Below are positions 5,613 through 47,765 of a stretch of 64,000 nt of DNA, piece by piece. Both the position numbers and the translations under genes were made by a program. The stretch's first letter is position 1; each line of letters starts with the position of its first letter. The notes under the pieces were generated by a model. That model saw only the letters and a list, made by a program, of their open reading frames with translations, was not told the DNA's origin and did no database searches. This DNA is from a virus. Its lineage: Duplodnaviria > Caudoviricetes. Where the stretch lies: IMG/VR virus record IMGVR_UViG_2576861548_000003, positions 1-64,000 of that record, one strand, 5' to 3'.

Positions 5613-5633
5613 CTACTAACTAATATTATCAAG

Positions 5634-5984
5634 ATGGCAAAATACAACAATACTAAGTACAAAGGATACGACTCTATTCGCGAGTATAGACGGGCGCAAG
5701 AACTGAAACTGCTCGAGAAAAAGGGAATTATCTCTGATCTGCAAGAGCAGTGTAAATACGAGCTTATTCCGGCACAATACGAGTATTATGAAGTGAAGGG
5801 AGTCCGGAAGATGCTGCAGAAAAGAAAGCTATTGGAGAAGTCCCTGTCCTACTATGCCGACTTCGTTTATTATCGTGATGGCGAATTAGTGGTGGAAGAT
5901 GCGAAAGGGATGAAAACGAAAGAGTATATAATCAAAAGAAAACTGATGCTTAGCATACATGGTATCAGAATAAAGGAGGTTTAA
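5634..5984 (+). CDS. DUF1064-like endonuclease
   Basis: KYNN..GYDSIRE, YYADFVY, VVEDAKG PD-(D/E)xK motifs. Confidence 0.8.
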   Translation: MAKYNNTKYKGYDSIREYRRAQELKLLEKKGIISDLQEQCKYELIPAQYEYYEVKGVRKMLQKRKLLEKSLSYYADFVYYRDGELVVEDAKGMKTKEYIIKRKLMLSIHGIRIKEV

Positions 5985-6142
5985 TCATGGCAAAGAAAAT
6001 CATTCAATCACAAAGTAAACCGGACTGCCGGAAGTGTAAGTATGGAGGTGAAGAAAAGAATTATATGTGTTACTGCTCCGCTCTGAGTGTCTTTAGATCG
6101 GTAGGCGTAAGGCCGTGCAGTTATTATGTTTCTCGATAATAT

Positions 6143-7841: not shown

Positions 7842-8174
7842 ATGATCAAGAAACCAATCAACGCAAATTATTTGCAAGATGTTCCGGAACATCATAAGCC
7901 CGTGAACGAACAGAACCGGAAGTATATCGACCGATTCGTTACAGAGAATTACGAACGCTTAAACAGCAAGTTTAAAACAGACGAAAAGATCAATTCAAGC
8001 GGATTCGGGGCACTCGACAAACTGAACGAGACACTTCTAAGGCTTTATACTGATCCGGATTTATGCTTTACGAACTGGCCGGATGCAGAACGGTATATGT
8101 CGAGCAAGTTCACTGAAAAAGAACTACGCATCCCGGTTCGGAAACCAAAGAGAGGGGATGAAGTGGAGAATTAA
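7842..8174 (+). CDS. hypothetical protein
   Basis: 110-aa ORF in operon. Confidence 0.6.
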   Translation: MIKKPINANYLQDVPEHHKPVNEQNRKYIDRFVTENYERLNSKFKTDEKINSSGFGALDKLNETLLRLYTDPDLCFTNWPDAERYMSSKFTEKELRIPVRKPKRGDEVEN

Positions 8175-8197
8175 TTTAAAACAATACAGGAATGAAT

Positions 8198-8228
8198 AAA
8201 AAGGAGGCGGGGTGTAAATCCGCCTCCC
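8198..8228 (-). terminator. intrinsic terminator on the minus strand
   Basis: GGAGGCGG/CCGCCTCC stem with an A-run on its left (U-tail on minus strand). Confidence 0.7.
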
Positions 8229-8237
8229 TGTCTACTC

Positions 8238-8402
8238 TCAACCCTCTTCACGTATCCTTATCCGCTTGTAGAAACCAAGGTTTAAGTATGTGTAAGTTGT
8301 TGTTTTCGCTGTTACTGGGATGGGGTTCTGACAATTTTTGATACAATCTGATATTTTATTTGATAGCATCCCAGCTATTATTGATAGCAGGAATTCTTTC
8401 AT
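8238..8402 (-). CDS. 54-aa small protein with hydrophobic N-terminus
   Basis: Translated by hand: MKEFLLSIIAGMLSNKISDCIKNCQNPIPVTAKTTTYTYLNLGFYKRIRIREEG*; lies between promoter/tRNA-like leader and terminator. Confidence 0.6.
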   Translation of the reverse strand: MKEFLLSIIAGMLSNKISDCIKNCQNPIPVTAKTTTYTYLNLGFYKRIRIREEG

Positions 8403-8431
8403 AAAATGATTGTTTATTTTTAGTAACAGTA

Positions 8432-8499
8432 TATACCTGGTAGGATTCGAACCACATATCCAATTGAAAGTTGGAGCTTAACCATTCGGCCACAGGTAT
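8432..8499 (-). tRNA. degenerate tRNA-Glu(TTC) / tRNA-like element
   Basis: Acceptor ATACCTG/CAGGTAT, anticodon arm TCCAA-CTTTCAA-TTGGA, T-loop GGTTCGAATCC; D- and T-stems each appear one base short. Confidence 0.7.
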
Positions 8500-8510
8500 A
8501 AAAACAGAAG

Positions 8511-8518
8511 CAAATATA
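8511..8518 (-). promoter_or_regulatory. Bacteroides -7 promoter box
   Basis: TATATTTG on minus strand about 11 nt upstream of the tRNA-like element. Confidence 0.65.
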
Positions 8519-8544
8519 CATTTTTAATTGATAGAAAAAATATT

Positions 8545-8979
8545 ATGGCAAAAATTTATGTAGCAAGTAGCTGGAGAAACTCATATCAGCAGGATGTTGT
8601 ATCGTTTCTCCGAAATGAAGGTCACGAAGTGTATGATTTTACACATCCAAACAGTGACATGAATTATGGCTTTTCATGGTCGAATATTGATCCTAATTGG
8701 AAGAACTGGACCACACAGCAGTATCGGGAGGCTCTCAATCATCCGATTGCACAGAAAGGTTTTGAATTAGATTTCAATGCTATGAAATGGGCGGATGTCT
8801 GTGTTATGGTTCTTCCTTGTGGTCGGTCTGCTAATACAGAAGCCGGATGGATGAAAGGTGCAGGTAAAAGAGTTATGGTTTACTCTCCAAAGGAGCAAGA
8901 ACCGGAGCTTATGTATAAGATATACGACTTCATAAGTGACAGTATGTTTAGAATCAATGATAAGATAAATAGAGTATAA
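8545..8979 (+). CDS. nucleoside 2-deoxyribosyltransferase-like protein
   Basis: KIYVASSWRN, DFNAMKWADVCV, SANTEAGW motifs. Confidence 0.7.
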   Translation: MAKIYVASSWRNSYQQDVVSFLRNEGHEVYDFTHPNSDMNYGFSWSNIDPNWKNWTTQQYREALNHPIAQKGFELDFNAMKWADVCVMVLPCGRSANTEAGWMKGAGKRVMVYSPKEQEPELMYKIYDFISDSMFRINDKINRV

Positions 8980-32842: not shown

Positions 32843-34084
32843 TTATAACATCATCATTTGCATTTGCGCGCGTAAATTTATGTAATCTTTGAATATTGCG
32901 GGGTTTTGAACATATTCTACTACCCTTTTTATAGCCGCATCCGCTTGTTGCTGTTTAACCTTTACATACACATTAATGGTGATTCCTGTTTTTATTGAAT
33001 GTCCTAAGCAATATTCTATGACAGGGTAGGGGATACCTATTTCGGCCGCAAACTGAGCGAATGTTTTTCTTGCTGAGTAATAAGTTAAGCTATTCTCAAT
33101 ATGAAGCTCTTTTGCCAGTAACTTCATACACGTATTGATATAGCATTGCAGATTCTTTTGCGTGTAGCTATATCCAAAATCTAACATCCCATTTGGGGTT
33201 ATATATTTGTTGATGATTTGTCTAACTTCGGGAATGATGTTTAATCTTGTTGCTCGATTTTTGCGCTTATGATCTTTGCTTTTTTGTCGCTTGTATTCGA
33301 TGTCATTCTCAGAGAAGTTTATTTGTATAAGATCGGCAAAGTTAATACCACCCAGATAAAAGGATAGCAAAAATAAGTCTTTTGCTAACGATAGTCTTTT
33401 GCTATGTGATACGTCACAATTGATTATTTTTCTAACACTTTCTACGCTTATATCTATTTCCTTTATGTCGGGTGTTGGAAGTTTAGTATAAGCAAATGGA
33501 TGCGCCTCGCATCGAAGTAGCCCATTTTTAATGGCTTCATTTATTCTCGCTTTAATATGACATAGGCGAATTTGGCGTCCTCCATCGCTATAATTATTTG
33601 CTTTCATCCATCTGTCGAAATGCTCTATAGTGATATGATTCATTATAATCATTGGCACATCACCTTCGGCCGCTTCGAACACTTTTAATGTATCTTCGTT
33701 CATTTTCGCATAACTTTCCCGGCCTTCTGACGAAAGCTCTTTTATACGATTGCGCATAAAGTCATTGAAGGTGATTATAGAAGGGACTACGTTTTCTTGT
33801 TGGATAAGTATCATCTTTAATTGAGATGCTGTATAACAGTCGTTATTCTCAATATAGGATAACCTTTCTGTGTATTTTTTCAGTTCAAAGGCTAGTCTTT
33901 TATTCATCATTGTAGCGTCCGTACGGGCGACTACTTTCCCGTTATACCATTCTGAAACATCATTCAACTGATACTCTGTTTTAATATATGCCTTCTGTTT
34001 TTTGGCTGAGATGCGCAACAAGACAGGAAATTTGTTTTCTGTTGTTGGTTTAGCCTTTAGAATAGTAAATGATAATGTTGCCAT
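32843..34084 (-). CDS. int: tyrosine integrase (Bacteroides Arm + SAM-like + catalytic)
   Basis: FLLSFYLGGINFADL, YKRQKS, YYSARKTFA, LGHS, VY; next to att. Confidence 0.93.
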   Translation of the reverse strand: MATLSFTILKAKPTTENKFPVLLRISAKKQKAYIKTEYQLNDVSEWYNGKVVARTDATMMNKRLAFELKKYTERLSYIENNDCYTASQLKMILIQQENVVPSIITFNDFMRNRIKELSSEGRESYAKMNEDTLKVFEAAEGDVPMIIMNHITIEHFDRWMKANNYSDGGRQIRLCHIKARINEAIKNGLLRCEAHPFAYTKLPTPDIKEIDISVESVRKIINCDVSHSKRLSLAKDLFLLSFYLGGINFADLIQINFSENDIEYKRQKSKDHKRKNRATRLNIIPEVRQIINKYITPNGMLDFGYSYTQKNLQCYINTCMKLLAKELHIENSLTYYSARKTFAQFAAEIGIPYPVIEYCLGHSIKTGITINVYVKVKQQQADAAIKRVVEYVQNPAIFKDYINLRAQMQMMML

Positions 34085-41131: not shown

Positions 41132-41608
41132 ATGAAAACTTTGCAAATCAGTGAACAAAAAGCTAGAGAACTCTACAAAAGTGGTTCCAGCGAGTTAAAA
41201 TCTATTTTGGAAGAGTCTTTTGGAAAAGATTTTTTCTCTCAAAAGATAACAGATAGAGTTAAAACCTATGAAGATGCATGTCGCGAATTAAGTACCAGTC
41301 CTCTTGATGAAAATAAGTTGATGAAACTCGGTCTTACTAAACATGATATTGCTTATCAAAAGTTGGTAACCATTATCAAGGCCCTTAACGAAGGTTGGGT
41401 ACCGGATGTATGTGATAGTAGTGTATATAGATGGTACCCGTGGTTCAAGACTAATGGTTCTCCTTCCTCTTTCGCTTTCTGCGATTCGCTTTGCGCTTAT
41501 GTTTATGCGGATGCGGGTAGCGGGTCTCGCCTTTGCTTGAAAAGTAAAGAATTGTCAGAGTATTGTGGTAAACAATTCATTGACCTTTGGAAACAGTTCA
41601 TTATTTAA
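41132..41608 (+). CDS. DGR target protein 1 (158 aa)
   Basis: Contains VR1; VKTYEDA..ALNEGW.PD..YPWF motifs shared with target 2; ATG at 41132. Confidence 0.85.
   Translation: MKTLQISEQKARELYKSGSSELKSILEESFGKDFFSQKITDRVKTYEDACRELSTSPLDENKLMKLGLTKHDIAYQKLVTIIKALNEGWVPDVCDSSVYRWYPWFKTNGSPSSFAFCDSLCAYVYADAGSGSRLCLKSKELSEYCGKQFIDLWKQFII
41459..41533 (+). repeat. DGR variable repeat VR1
   Basis: 75-nt alignment to TR: 15 mismatches, 14 at TR adenines. Confidence 0.95.
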
Positions 41609-41623
41609 CTAAATATTATCATC

Positions 41624-42004
41624 ATGAAAAAAGAAAATAAAAAGATTACAGAGTTAGTCAAAACGTTTGAGGATGCCCGTAAGCTGACCGGCAGACCGGA
41701 TGTTCCTGACTTTTCCAATCTTCCCACTGACATGCGCAAACATTTTGAGGCACAGTATAAGATGATTGTAATTGCAGAAGCCCTTAACGAGGGATGGATT
41801 CCTGATTGGGATAATTATAATGAATATAAGTATTATCCTTGGTTTGAAATGTCTCCTTCCTCTTTCGCTTTCGACGGTTCGTTTTACGATTGTGCTTATG
41901 CGTATGCGGGTAGCGGGTCTCGCCTTAAATTTCGGACACGCGAGCTTGCAAATTATGCAGCAGAGCAATTTATTGATATTTGGAAAGATATCCAGATAGG
42001 ATAG
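41624..42004 (+). CDS. DGR target protein 2 (126 aa)
   Basis: Paralogue of target 1; contains VR2. Confidence 0.88.
   Translation: MKKENKKITELVKTFEDARKLTGRPDVPDFSNLPTDMRKHFEAQYKMIVIAEALNEGWIPDWDNYNEYKYYPWFEMSPSSFAFDGSFYDCAYAYAGSGSRLKFRTRELANYAAEQFIDIWKDIQIG
41852..41926 (+). repeat. DGR variable repeat VR2
   Basis: 75-nt alignment to TR: 13 mismatches, all at TR adenines. Confidence 0.95.
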
Positions 42005-42027
42005 GATATAAAGGTTGCCTGTCCTTG

Positions 42028-42102
42028 TCTCCTTCCTCTTTCGCTTTCAACGATTCGAATTACGATAATGCAAATGCGAATGCAGGTAGCAGGTCTCACC
42101 TA
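42028..42102 (+). repeat. DGR template repeat TR
   Basis: TCTCCTTCCTCTTTCGCTTTCAACGATTCGAATTACGATAATGCAAATGCGAATGCAGGTAGCAGGTCTCACCTA; 19 adenines, five AAY codons; intergenic just upstream of RT. Confidence 0.95.
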
Positions 42103-42208
42103 TGTTACAATAATCCAATGGGCAGGGGCCTCACCTCTTGGTGGAAAATAACAATTCAAACGGTGTCGGTAGGGCTTATCCGAAGACTCTTATTAGAAAC
42201 AAAGGCTT

Positions 42209-43195
42209 ATGAAACGATTTGGAAATTTATACTATCGTATTTGTGACATTGATAACCTTTACCTTGCATATACCAAAGCAAGAAAAGGCAAGGGAAATAC
42301 TTATGGGGTCATTCAATTTGAGAAAGAATTGGATGACAACATAAATACCCTTCATAAGGAACTGTCAGAAGGTAAATACGTTACTTCTGAATATCAAACT
42401 TTTATCATACATGATCCTAAGGAACGTGAAATATACCGGCTCCCTTTCCGTGATCGTGTTGTTCATCATGCGATAATGAATATCCTCGAAGATATATGGA
42501 CTCCGATATTCATTTCACATACTTATTCATGTATTAAGGGCAGAGGTATCCATGGAGTAATGAAACATCTAAAGAAAGATTTGAAAGATATCCAAAATAC
42601 AAAATATTGCCTGAAAATGGATATTCGTAAATACTATCCGTCAATAGATCATTTGATACTTAAGAATATTGTCCGAAAGAAGGTTAAGGACAAACGTCTT
42701 CTTGAGTTACTCGACGGTATTATTGATTCTGCTCCGGGAATACCTATCGGTAATTATCTTTCTCAGTTCTTTGCAAACTTGTATCTATCTTACTTTGACC
42801 ACTGGCTTAAAGAGGAAAGACGTATAAAGTATTATTATAGATATGCTGATGATATGGTAATACTTTCATCAAACAAAGAAGAGCTTCACTCTCTGCTTGG
42901 AGATATAAAATCATATCTGCATAATAAGCTTCATTTAAATTTAAAAGACAATTATCAAATATTCCCGGTTGATAATAGAGGAATTGACTTTGTTGGCTAT
43001 GTTTTCTTTCACACTCATATTTTAATGCGGAAAAGTATCAAGAAAAACTTCTGTAGAAAAGTAGCAGTGTTGAACAAAAAGAAAACTACATCCTGCAACT
43101 GCAAGATAGCACTTTGTTCATGGATGGGATGGGCAAAACATTGTAATTCAAAGCACTTAATTAAAACTGTAATCAAAAATGAAAAGGTTTTCTGA
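42209..43195 (+). CDS. DGR reverse transcriptase
   Basis: PKEREI..LPFRDRVVHHA, KMDIRKYYPSI, GIPIGNYLSQ (DGR SQ motif), YADD; no maturase or endonuclease domain. Confidence 0.95.
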   Translation: MKRFGNLYYRICDIDNLYLAYTKARKGKGNTYGVIQFEKELDDNINTLHKELSEGKYVTSEYQTFIIHDPKEREIYRLPFRDRVVHHAIMNILEDIWTPIFISHTYSCIKGRGIHGVMKHLKKDLKDIQNTKYCLKMDIRKYYPSIDHLILKNIVRKKVKDKRLLELLDGIIDSAPGIPIGNYLSQFFANLYLSYFDHWLKEERRIKYYYRYADDMVILSSNKEELHSLLGDIKSYLHNKLHLNLKDNYQIFPVDNRGIDFVGYVFFHTHILMRKSIKKNFCRKVAVLNKKKTTSCNCKIALCSWMGWAKHCNSKHLIKTVIKNEKVF

Positions 43196-43496
43196 TTTTG
43201 GAATTGATATTGACGCGGGACGTAATATTTTCCCTGTACAGCAAATATCAATAACCGATATACTCAACTGTGAGATAGAGGTACTTGACTATGAATCTGG
43301 AGTTAAAACTCAACATGGAGATAATCGTTGCGTAGTCAAGATTAGGCATGAAGGAGCTGAATATAAATTCTTTACTAACTCTTCTCCGATAAAAGAGGCA
43401 CTTAGTAAAATTTCCAAAGAAGATTTTCCATTTATAGCTACAGTACGTATCAAGAAAATAGGTACTGGTAATAATAAAATGTATTATTTCACTTAA
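43179..43496 (+). CDS. RT-coupled 105-aa protein (candidate DGR accessory factor)
   Basis: Overlaps RT stop by 17 nt; alternating hydrophobic beta-strand pattern. Confidence 0.65.
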   Translation: MKRFSDFGIDIDAGRNIFPVQQISITDILNCEIEVLDYESGVKTQHGDNRCVVKIRHEGAEYKFFTNSSPIKEALSKISKEDFPFIATVRIKKIGTGNNKMYYFT

Positions 43497-46649: not shown

Positions 46650-47065
46650 TTATCAATTAGTCCGAACCTTTTTAATTCGGCTTTATTGATTCGAGAGTTA
46701 CTCTTTATCTTATCACAAACAAGGCTAATATCTTCCTCATCCAATGTGCCTAAACTAGTACTTTTAAGAAGTTTGTTCTTCTTTACTATTTTAATTGAAG
46801 AGCAATCTATGTAGCTATCATATGAAAGGAAATCATAACTTTCCCCTTTTATAAGATGTTGCATTGCTCGTACATTAAGTGGCAGATTCATATTAATAAA
46901 GGAGTTAAAGATGACACCACCATAAACGTTTCCATCGTTATCAAAGCCAAGTACTACAAAAAATTTATCACGACTGGTATCTCCGGGTTTGGGTACTACT
47001 CCATTGGCTTTGTTCATCGTAACAAAAAATACATCCCCTATCTTAATTTCCGAAGGTTTCATCAA
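46646..47065 (-). CDS. PemK/MazF-fold putative toxin
   Basis: KIGDVFFV..RDKFFVVLG..SYIDCSSI pattern; downstream of Panacea antitoxin. Confidence 0.6.
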   Translation of the reverse strand: MMKPSEIKIGDVFFVTMNKANGVVPKPGDTSRDKFFVVLGFDNDGNVYGGVIFNSFINMNLPLNVRAMQHLIKGESYDFLSYDSYIDCSSIKIVKKNKLLKSTSLGTLDEEDISLVCDKIKSNSRINKAELKRFGLIDK

Positions 47066-47570
47066 ATGCTATTGAATCATTAATATATTTTACAAGTTCA
47101 TCATTAGCTCCTCCATCAAGGGCAATATCCCCCGGATCAATAACATGATTCCCCTTTTTGTCTCTCGCTTTTTGCCAACAAGTTGTATGAGAAGTTTTTT
47201 CCAACTCCTTAAAACTCATTTTCCCGTATTTGGAAATACATAAATCTAAAGTGTCTTTATCATATTGTGAAAGATAATCCATATTCGGTTCACGTTTAGA
47301 TAATAGATAGTAATCTACAACATGAACATCATCTGTCATTTTTGAAAGAACGCTTTTTTGCCCCCGTATTGTACTATACAAAATTGTTGGTACTGGTCCA
47401 TGGGGAAGAGCACAAAACTTATCTGCTATCATCAGTTGTCCCCAGTCAACCAAGCTGCGTTGATTGGCAAAATATAATATCTTGAACAAATGATAATAGT
47501 CCATACCCCCAGTTTTATTAAGGATATAAAGTACTATTTCTATGATTTTTTGTTGTTCAAATTTTGTCAT
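47043..47570 (-). CDS. Panacea (DUF4065/SocA-like) antitoxin
   Basis: LFKILYFA, ALPHGPVP, KYGKMSFKELEKTSH..WQ; ATG at 47570. Confidence 0.85.
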   Translation of the reverse strand: MTKFEQQKIIEIVLYILNKTGGMDYYHLFKILYFANQRSLVDWGQLMIADKFCALPHGPVPTILYSTIRGQKSVLSKMTDDVHVVDYYLLSKREPNMDYLSQYDKDTLDLCISKYGKMSFKELEKTSHTTCWQKARDKKGNHVIDPGDIALDGGANDELVKYINDSIAFDETFGN

Positions 47571-47765
47571 TTTTTTAGGGTTCTTGGTCACTAATTATAT
47601 AACTGCATATTCAAATATATGCATTTTAATGCAAAGAAACAAACAATAATTCAATAAGCAAACGATTAACGGCTTAATTAACACGTTAATTAACATGTTT
47701 ATAGCTAAAATATCGGTTTATTAGGGAGCTATATAAATAAAGAGATGCATTTCATCCCTTATTTG

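Follow-up and report, generated by a model that had tools for sequence, protein, structure and literature searches.

The DNA analysed here (the window) is a stretch of 64,000 nucleotides, positions 1-64,000 of the IMG/VR provirus record IMGVR_UViG_2576861548_000003, which comprises 109,908 bases in full and contains a Bacteroides prophage. It carries a diversity-generating retroelement (DGR), a system in which an error-prone reverse transcriptase (RT) copies the RNA of a template repeat (TR), placing random bases opposite adenines, and the cDNA replaces a variable repeat (VR) in a target gene. Phage DGRs are usually read as host-range devices acting on tail fibres. The DGR described here is directed at two small paralogous proteins, T1 and T2, whose tandem genes lie directly 5' of a module made up of TR, RT and a small protein termed p105 (42028-43496). 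The locus contains the following features.

41132-41608, + strand: T1, target protein of 158 aa, matching phrog_11581 (E 9.6e-36)
41459-41533, + strand: VR1, 75 nt, codons 110-134 of T1
41624-42004, + strand: T2, target protein of 126 aa, paralogue of T1 (44% identity), matching phrog_11581 (E 1.6e-24)
41852-41926, + strand: VR2, 75 nt, codons 77-101 of T2
42028-42102, + strand: TR, non-coding, 75 nt
42127-42202, + strand: spacer from TR to RT, matching the Rfam RT-17 RNA below threshold
42209-43195, + strand: DGR reverse transcriptase of 328 aa, matching RVT_1 (E 4.9e-17) and phrog_1423 (E 1.8e-131)
43179-43496, + strand: p105, a predicted OB-like (oligonucleotide/oligosaccharide-binding) protein of 105 aa whose gene overlaps the RT stop; candidate accessory factor of the DGR

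The TR holds 19 adenines in total. VR1 differs from it at 15 positions, 14 of them TR adenines, and VR2 at 13 positions, 13/13 at TR adenines; the RT translation shows IGNYLSQ (the I/LGxxxSQ motif) and YADD (the YxDD motif). A DGR with two targets had been proposed here from the letters of the window (the sequence-only reading), and this proposal stands. The repeat ends (a 21-nt 5' part and an 18-nt 3' part) occur three times each in the window, where shuffles lead one to expect 0.01, and the full record contains just three repeat copies plus one 14-nt chance match (E 0.087). A repeat search of all 109,908 bases thus found no tail-fibre VR, in keeping with the earlier claim that a tail-fibre target is absent. 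The variable part of the TR distributes 13 adenines over eight codon-equivalents (five AAY, two GAT and one TAC), corresponding to T1 columns 117, 118, 120, 121, 122, 123, 125 and 127 (TR codons AAC, GAT, AAT, TAC, GAT, AAT, AAT and AAT, respectively). By arithmetic from the TR sequence, the diversity capacity is 15^5 x 4^3, or ~4.9e7 peptides per target, with zero stop codons.

Natural variation was followed in an alignment of 105 of the best 120 T1 homologues (78-95% identical; rows of 156, 159 and 178-187 aa left out), those 120 falling into many single-member 90% clusters, and in a survey of 80 related IMG/VR loci (L013-L092). The eight most variable T1 columns of the alignment (entropy 1.35-3.64 bits) are exactly the eight adenine-bearing TR codons; eight further columns exceed 1 bit, none of them 1.5 bits. 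The residue sets are those that adenine randomisation predicts, with D/G/V/A at GAT and Y/C/F/S at TAC. Among the related loci with an RT and three repeat copies (n=37), TR adenines account for 900 of the 933 positions at which TR and VR disagree. Over 2401 nt, 23 differences separate the window from a contig of another sample, 23/23 inside the VRs and 22 at TR-adenine positions, the 23rd being the TR base restored at the single non-adenine mismatch of the window; VR2 differs between samples only at TR-adenine positions. Judged by this variation across samples, the DGR is, with very little room for doubt, real and active on both targets, and the adenine-specific variation that the sequence-only reading had called for is present across homologues and samples. 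The VR peptides of T1 and T2 are identical within each of two survey loci (L035 and L037), a sign that one VR may have been converted by the other or that a single cDNA may have served both.

The 3' end of the repeats behaves differently. Both VRs carry GGTAGCGGGTCTCGCCTT there, the TR having A at 3 places of this segment, and the VR/TR differences at repeat positions 56, 63, 70 and 74 are common to both VRs and nearly fixed in the population. The TR adenines at positions 63 and 70 encode R and H, where the 105 T1 sequences have a nearly invariant G131 and an invariant R133; rare variants in the survey loci are S130C/G/R, G131W and R133H. In these comparisons the fixed differences reflect selection or a difference between the initiation of mutagenic homing sites of VR and TR (IMH/IMH*), not independent diversification, and the two causes are indistinguishable because rare W and H variants occur at these positions. 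A pure IMH/IMH* reading was considered and, given the rare population variants, neither adopted nor rejected. The earlier claim that the two VRs were diversified independently therefore holds for the part where they differ mutually and vary between samples at TR-adenine positions, but not for their shared and nearly fixed 3'-end differences. DNA hairpins 3' of the VRs are weak (z -1.7 and -2.0).

Across the survey, T1 and T2 stand in tandem in 78/80 loci (the other 2 are cut at contig ends), and an RT is found in 42 and lacking in 38. The p105 gene is present in 41 of the 42 loci with an RT and in none of the 38 without; by the 21-nt TR pattern, the TR is present in 37/42 loci with an RT and absent in 36/38 without, these having only two repeat copies. 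Relative to one close relative without an RT (L022), the window carries an insertion at 42041-43469 that comprises TR, RT and p105, and in L022 a NUMOD4/HNH_3 homing endonuclease (8037-8675) replaces the module in the same slot. On this distribution, TR, RT and p105 occur, or are missing, together as one module. Its RT is 58-59% identical to DGR RTs of crAss-like phages. The spacer match to Rfam RT-17 scores 33.4 bits (E 6.3e-4), below the gathering score of 40.4, and by minimum free energy the RNA of 42010-42215 (TR plus spacer) folds no better than its shuffled versions (z +0.81).

The link between p105 and the RT extends beyond these loci. Among 24 loci found through p105 in Bacteroidota genomes, 23 have an RT just upstream and the other one ends at a contig edge. 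Eleven of the 24 have one to three genes of the family of T1 and T2 (the T family) upstream; in the other twelve RT-bearing loci the RT lies ~400-850 nt upstream of p105 and a T-family gene was not seen, and 11 of those twelve have upstream a protein of 345-879 aa ending in a classical long VR, the twelfth being cut within its RT. The AlphaFold2 (AF2) model of p105 (mean predicted local distance difference test, pLDDT, 90) has the order strand-strand-strand-helix-strand-strand, consistent with the order of an OB fold. Foldseek gave no match for it at E<=1e-3, and p105 has no Pfam family. No match to Avd (PF05635) was found at E<=1 in the 109,908-base record, while control genomes did match. 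From its model and linkage, p105 is a candidate RT-linked accessory factor with a predicted OB-like fold.

T1 and T2 match no Pfam family. A search with the phrog_11581/T-family profile gave 3871 representatives at E<=1e-3, of which 2213 reach E<=1e-10, and a search with T1 gave 2211 homologues, most of those listed being 158 aa. The highest Kyte-Doolittle mean over 19 residues is 0.68 (T1) and 0.40 (T2), with no hydrophobic stretch, and both proteins are accordingly predicted to have no signal peptide or membrane segment; 24 residues follow the VR in T1 and 25 in T2. The sizes, the lack of signal peptides, the placement in an early/recombination region and the tail of about 25 residues described in the sequence-only reading were all recovered. 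T1 and T2 are the sole members of the family in the 109,908-base record. Natural single-chain fusions with two T-family domains exist elsewhere. Two homologues from public assemblies look like T1/T2 chimeras, one with a T1-like front and a T2-like C-terminus (P0064) and one the reverse (P0199), which is what recombination at the VR common to both would produce.

The AF2 model of T2 (pLDDT 87.8 with 128 sequences) has five helices and no strand of at least 3 residues, and the conserved ALNEGWxPDW...YYPWF motif lies in a long irregular stretch that is confidently placed. Compared with solved structures, the model gave 0 Foldseek PDB matches at E<=1e-3 and a best VIA-wide Z of 3.7; in BFVD only uncharacterised gut-phage proteins matched, the T-family profile had no match to PDB sequences below E 0.07, and the ESM Atlas returned only unnamed viral clusters, with no model, for the family. 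Alignment of the T family with the C-termini of tail-protein targets in hhalign gave 95.7% (E 1e-8, 55 columns), a match that the shared VR itself could cause, and the tail targets (A6) resemble Mtd only weakly (E 0.17). The contrast that the sequence-only reading drew with C-type lectin (CLec) targets may or may not hold: the T2 model matches no solved fold, its VR loop is modelled with low confidence, and the VR segment is profile-related to Mtd-like tail targets. From these profiles, the T family may be a reduced derivative of a CLec domain or may have captured a CLec-type VR.

The T1 and T2 genes lie inside a same-strand early operon between YqaJ/DUF1351 and AntA genes, with RecT, a NUMOD4/HNH endonuclease and YqaJ upstream and the AntA antirepressor and VRR_NUC downstream. 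The record looks like two tandem prophages, the right one of which holds the DGR. In the left one, genes for terminase, portal, head and tail occupy 11.5-27 kb and an integrase gene (32843-34084) comes after them. This integrase and a repressor-like gene separate the structural genes at 11.5-27 kb from the DGR, and those structural genes appear to belong to the neighbouring prophage. The structural genes of the DGR prophage start ~30 kb downstream, outside the window, with terminase, portal, head, tape-measure and 2002-aa tail fibre genes at ~71-100 kb of the record (L010 and L011); T1 and T2 are ~50 kb from that tail fibre gene. The head-morphogenesis protein of the right prophage (L010, 13354-14970) matches phrog_16625, 'Bxa ADP-ribosyl transferase' (E 7.2e-69). 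A gene at 47043-47591 (- strand) encodes a protein with a SocA/Panacea domain (Pfam E 1.4e-20), and after it this strand carries an open reading frame (ORF) of 139 aa without a Pfam family; the two may form a toxin-antitoxin moron.

We favour the reading that this is an active DGR acting on T1 and T2 as paired intracellular binders, with p105 as a helper, and rate this reading as a whole a little above an even chance; the part that places the binders inside the cell, which draws on gene position and protein features, is evenly balanced. Under this reading, the TR RNA would be copied by the RT and the cDNA would overwrite VR1 or VR2. T1 and T2 would be soluble cytoplasmic proteins produced with the early genes, each with a helical scaffold that would display the VR loop as a variable binding surface, and the two would work jointly, for which the tandem pair and the two-domain fusions give indirect support. 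Their ligands would be variable molecules of the host or of rival phages inside the cell, such as defence proteins, and p105 would be an OB-fold nucleic-acid-binding helper in place of Avd. A broader version is tentative and less likely than not: the T family would be a minimal intracellular 'antibody-like' scaffold of gut Bacteroidota phages, crAss-like ones among them, coupled to DGRs and directed against variable host defence or rival-phage proteins. In the lineage of this prophage the system would have become autonomous, with a pair of scaffolds and a portable module of TR, RT and OB-fold protein able to do without Avd.

The prophage setting also bears on another proposal, that T1 and T2 are morons expressed in the lysogen which bind components of incoming rival phages or other outside threats and thereby serve, in diversified form, superinfection exclusion or the benefit of the host. 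An integrase and a repressor mark the element as a prophage, its region holds defence-type morons such as the SocA/Panacea gene, and contigs from three RNA libraries from the gut contain the locus. However, the genes sit within the same-strand early operon rather than at one end of the prophage or in a unit of their own, and the presence of the locus in RNA-library contigs is no demonstration of transcription. The family is also carried by crAss-like phages, which are not known to form lysogens. We consider this proposal improbable.

Genes of the T family were found by tblastn in 11 phage records, eight of which were tested (PV4-TP1 and two further LoVEphage genomes were left out). In all seven of the tested records that bear a DGR, the VR of the family gene matches the TR of that same phage. 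The mismatches at TR adenines are 10/10 in BT-TP2, 11/11 in Versailles, 14/14 in cr52_1, 15/15 in cr56_1 and 9/9 in LoVEphage; read from the alignment, all in-repeat mismatches of BI-TP1 are at TR adenines, as are all except 2 of those of cr60_1. The eighth record, cr109_1, has the family gene and no RT. The RT frames of cr52_1 (L121) and cr56_1 (L122) contain 6 and 5 in-frame TAG codons, respectively, which fits stop-codon recoding. In cr60_1 a second copy of the VR sits in or next to a tail-protein gene, second copies in Versailles, cr52_1, cr56_1 and LoVEphage are close to the TR, and the C-terminus of the BI-TP1 tail protein shares the VR motif. The family gene is ~16 kb from the TR in LoVEphage, ~44 kb in Versailles and 46 kb in cr60_1, and ~15.5 kb in BI-TP1 (across the record ends, if the genome is circular). 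Around it lie small early genes, genes for recombination or replication, or genes for methyltransferases and restriction alleviation (cr60_1, cr52_1, Versailles, BI-TP1 and LoVEphage). As judged from these repeat matches, the T family is repeatedly coupled to the resident DGR of its phage in unrelated gut phages, crAss-like ones included; elsewhere it is the second target of a TR that also diversifies a tail protein, whereas here it is the sole target. Together with the 42 RT-bearing survey loci, these phages supply the DGR linkage among homologues for which the sequence-only reading had asked.

Several results weigh against paired intracellular binders. In the other phages the same TR also diversifies a tail protein, which makes a virion- or receptor-related role possible, and the Versailles homologue is annotated 'tail protein' (HHpred against PHROGs). 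The fold of the targets is uncertain, the VR loop of the T2 model having a pLDDT of ~60, and the best fold matches of p105, mostly SSB/OB folds, are weak, all with Z below 6 in the VIA-wide comparison (5.9 to a RuvBL2 fragment, 5.6 to the PRD1 single-stranded DNA-binding protein (SSB) P12, 5.3 to Rim1 and 5.1 to an SSB). Lastly, VRs in loci without an RT are as diverse as those in loci with one: identical VRs make up 8/182 and 1/81 scaffold-matched pairs, respectively, and the median number of differences is 17 in either group (the comparison used 72 of the 80 loci, the remaining 8 lacking two pattern copies or enough flank). Frozen VRs in the RT-less loci, which would have meant much more VR sharing there, were dropped as an idea on these counts and equal medians, and in the sequences compared the test gives no support for a present-day dependence on the adjacent RT. 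Four of five RT-less records searched whole have no RT anywhere. Diverse VRs in such relatives mean either that the module was lost often and recently or that diversification acts in trans.

The tail-protein connection raises the alternative that T1 and T2, although encoded away from the structural genes, are accessory adhesins of the virion or adaptors for receptor binding, with the DGR serving host range as it classically does. It gains from the TR that serves both the family VR and a tail protein in 7/7 other phages, from the hhalign relation of the VR segment to Mtd-like C-termini and from the Versailles label, but the shared VR may be all that lies behind that label. In 6/6 neighbourhoods (this phage included), the gene is surrounded by early, recombination, replication or anti-restriction genes; it is ~16-46 kb from the tail cassette in LoVEphage, BI-TP1, Versailles and cr60_1, besides the ~50 kb to the tail fibre gene here, and no N-terminal virion-docking domain was seen in these proteins of 126-158 aa. 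An adhesin role is, in our judgement, unlikely, if the strongest of the alternatives.

The RT-less loci bear on a further possibility, that the T family is a passive bystander whose IMH-like, GSRL-coding end lets a resident DGR overwrite it, the variation being non-adaptive. The '...GSRLCF' end is indeed common to tail targets and the T family, and no RT is nearby in 38/80 loci, nor anywhere in four of the five records searched whole. Against this, the frames are open in all 105 aligned T1 variants, and among the survey loci the C-terminal frames are open in 79/80 T2 and in all but one T1, that of L020 being shortened just after the VR. The AAY, GAT and TAC codons of the TR cannot mutate to stops, and G131 and R133 are held against the TR-encoded R and H, which indicates selection at the protein level; moreover, the family is the sole target in this lineage, and the whole RT module is kept in 42/80 loci. 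Passive overwriting is very improbable, more so than the moron.

A non-structural DGR target has a precedent. In Quimbyvirus, the second target of the DGR lies in a 'defense-related island' and was interpreted as a non-structural protein with a part in the conflict between phage and host (Benler 2021, PMC8008677), and the novelty claimed in the sequence-only reading was therefore overstated. Quimbyvirus and LoVEphage are each reported to align at ~95% identity to the Bacteroides dorei prophage CP011531.1 (PMC8008677, PMC8525569), and LoVEphage appears to be a close relative of Quimbyvirus; because both align to that prophage, the T-family gene of LoVEphage is very probably the second target of Quimbyvirus, and we infer on these alignments that Quimbyvirus ORF 80/84 belongs to the T family. 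As here, the Quimbyvirus target is separated from the structural genes; its neighbours are nuclease, methyltransferase and tRNA-ligase genes, and the LoVEphage homologue, with its adenine-restricted mismatches (9/9), sits in a Quimbyvirus-like neighbourhood. In Quimbyvirus, however, the DGR serves a tail fibre, has a TR of ~110 nt and reaches the small protein, called a C-type lectin, as a distant second target, whereas in this prophage two tandem paralogues are sole targets and adjoin the module, which has a 75-nt TR with 8 variable codons and p105. In the excerpts consulted, Benler 2021 was the only literature found on non-structural phage DGR targets.

With the DGR of Bordetella phage BPP-1 (mtd-avd-TR-brt; PMC5758913) the locus shares an adenine-specific TR/VR relation, an RT with I/LGxxxSQ, a VR near the 3' end of the target and a GC-rich VR 3' end that differs from the TR; it differs in having targets that are not tail fibres, two of them, no Avd, 24-25 residues after the VR and a predicted target fold that is not recognisably Mtd-like. 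Of the same RT/p105 clade are DGRs in the tail modules of Bacteroidota prophages (L102-L116 except L106 and L111), whose RTs are 49-62% identical and which have a p105 homologue downstream and a VR ending GSRLCF. Their target is, in contrast, a tail protein of 345-879 aa with a VR of ~115 nt (the repeat pair measures 114-117 nt in L103, L108 and L113). One of them, L103, has an ORF of 119 aa between the RT and the p105 homologue (5632-5991), without a significant Pfam family, and a 1260-aa tail-fibre-like gene downstream.

The accessory genes described for DGRs are Avd, HRDC, MSL and CH1 (PMC5758913), and like these p105 is a small protein closely linked to the RT. Avd is a basic, barrel-shaped homopentamer of 128-aa subunits, unlike the beta-rich, OB-like model of p105, and CH1 has 160-169 aa and an isoelectric point (pI) of 4.7, where the p105 family has a pI of 7.85 +/- 1.05; an assignment to CH1 was ruled out by size and pI. 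On size, charge or fold, p105 cannot be placed in any of these four classes. An accessory-free architecture was reported for 75/372 DGRs (Wu 2018, PMC5758913), and the absence of Avd does not exclude DGR membership since such DGRs exist. In the sources consulted, no description was found of p105 or of a DGR targeting only such small proteins; the supplements of Roux 2021 (target clusters), Wu 2018 (PAG1-4) and the Bacteroides survey 10.1101/2024.11.15.621889 (clusters c1-c35) may list the T family or p105. Large surveys, as excerpted, report phage targets that are mostly tail proteins and left remote targets unsearched (PMC8144416, PMC12636319), and the parts consulted of two articles on crAss DGRs (PMC12386605, PMC11054128) give tail or receptor-binding targets only.

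The DGR architecture of this prophage is unusual. The Quimbyvirus precedent makes it less novel, whereas the pattern across lineages and p105, which points to an undescribed RT-linked, OB-like accessory protein, make it more so. Surveys centred on the vicinity of the RT miss remote targets of the kind found in the other phages, a limit stated in the part of Roux 2021 (PMC8144416) consulted. Several unrelated lineages of gut phages hypermutate one conserved small protein whose gene lies in non-structural surroundings, and in one lineage nothing else is targeted. If T1 and T2 act inside the cell, DGRs also drive the arms race that follows phage entry. In that case their scaffold of ~126 aa, with its 8 variable positions, would offer a compact natural platform for binders, and the locus would be the first clear case of targeted hypermutation used for intracellular counter-defence and not for adsorption.

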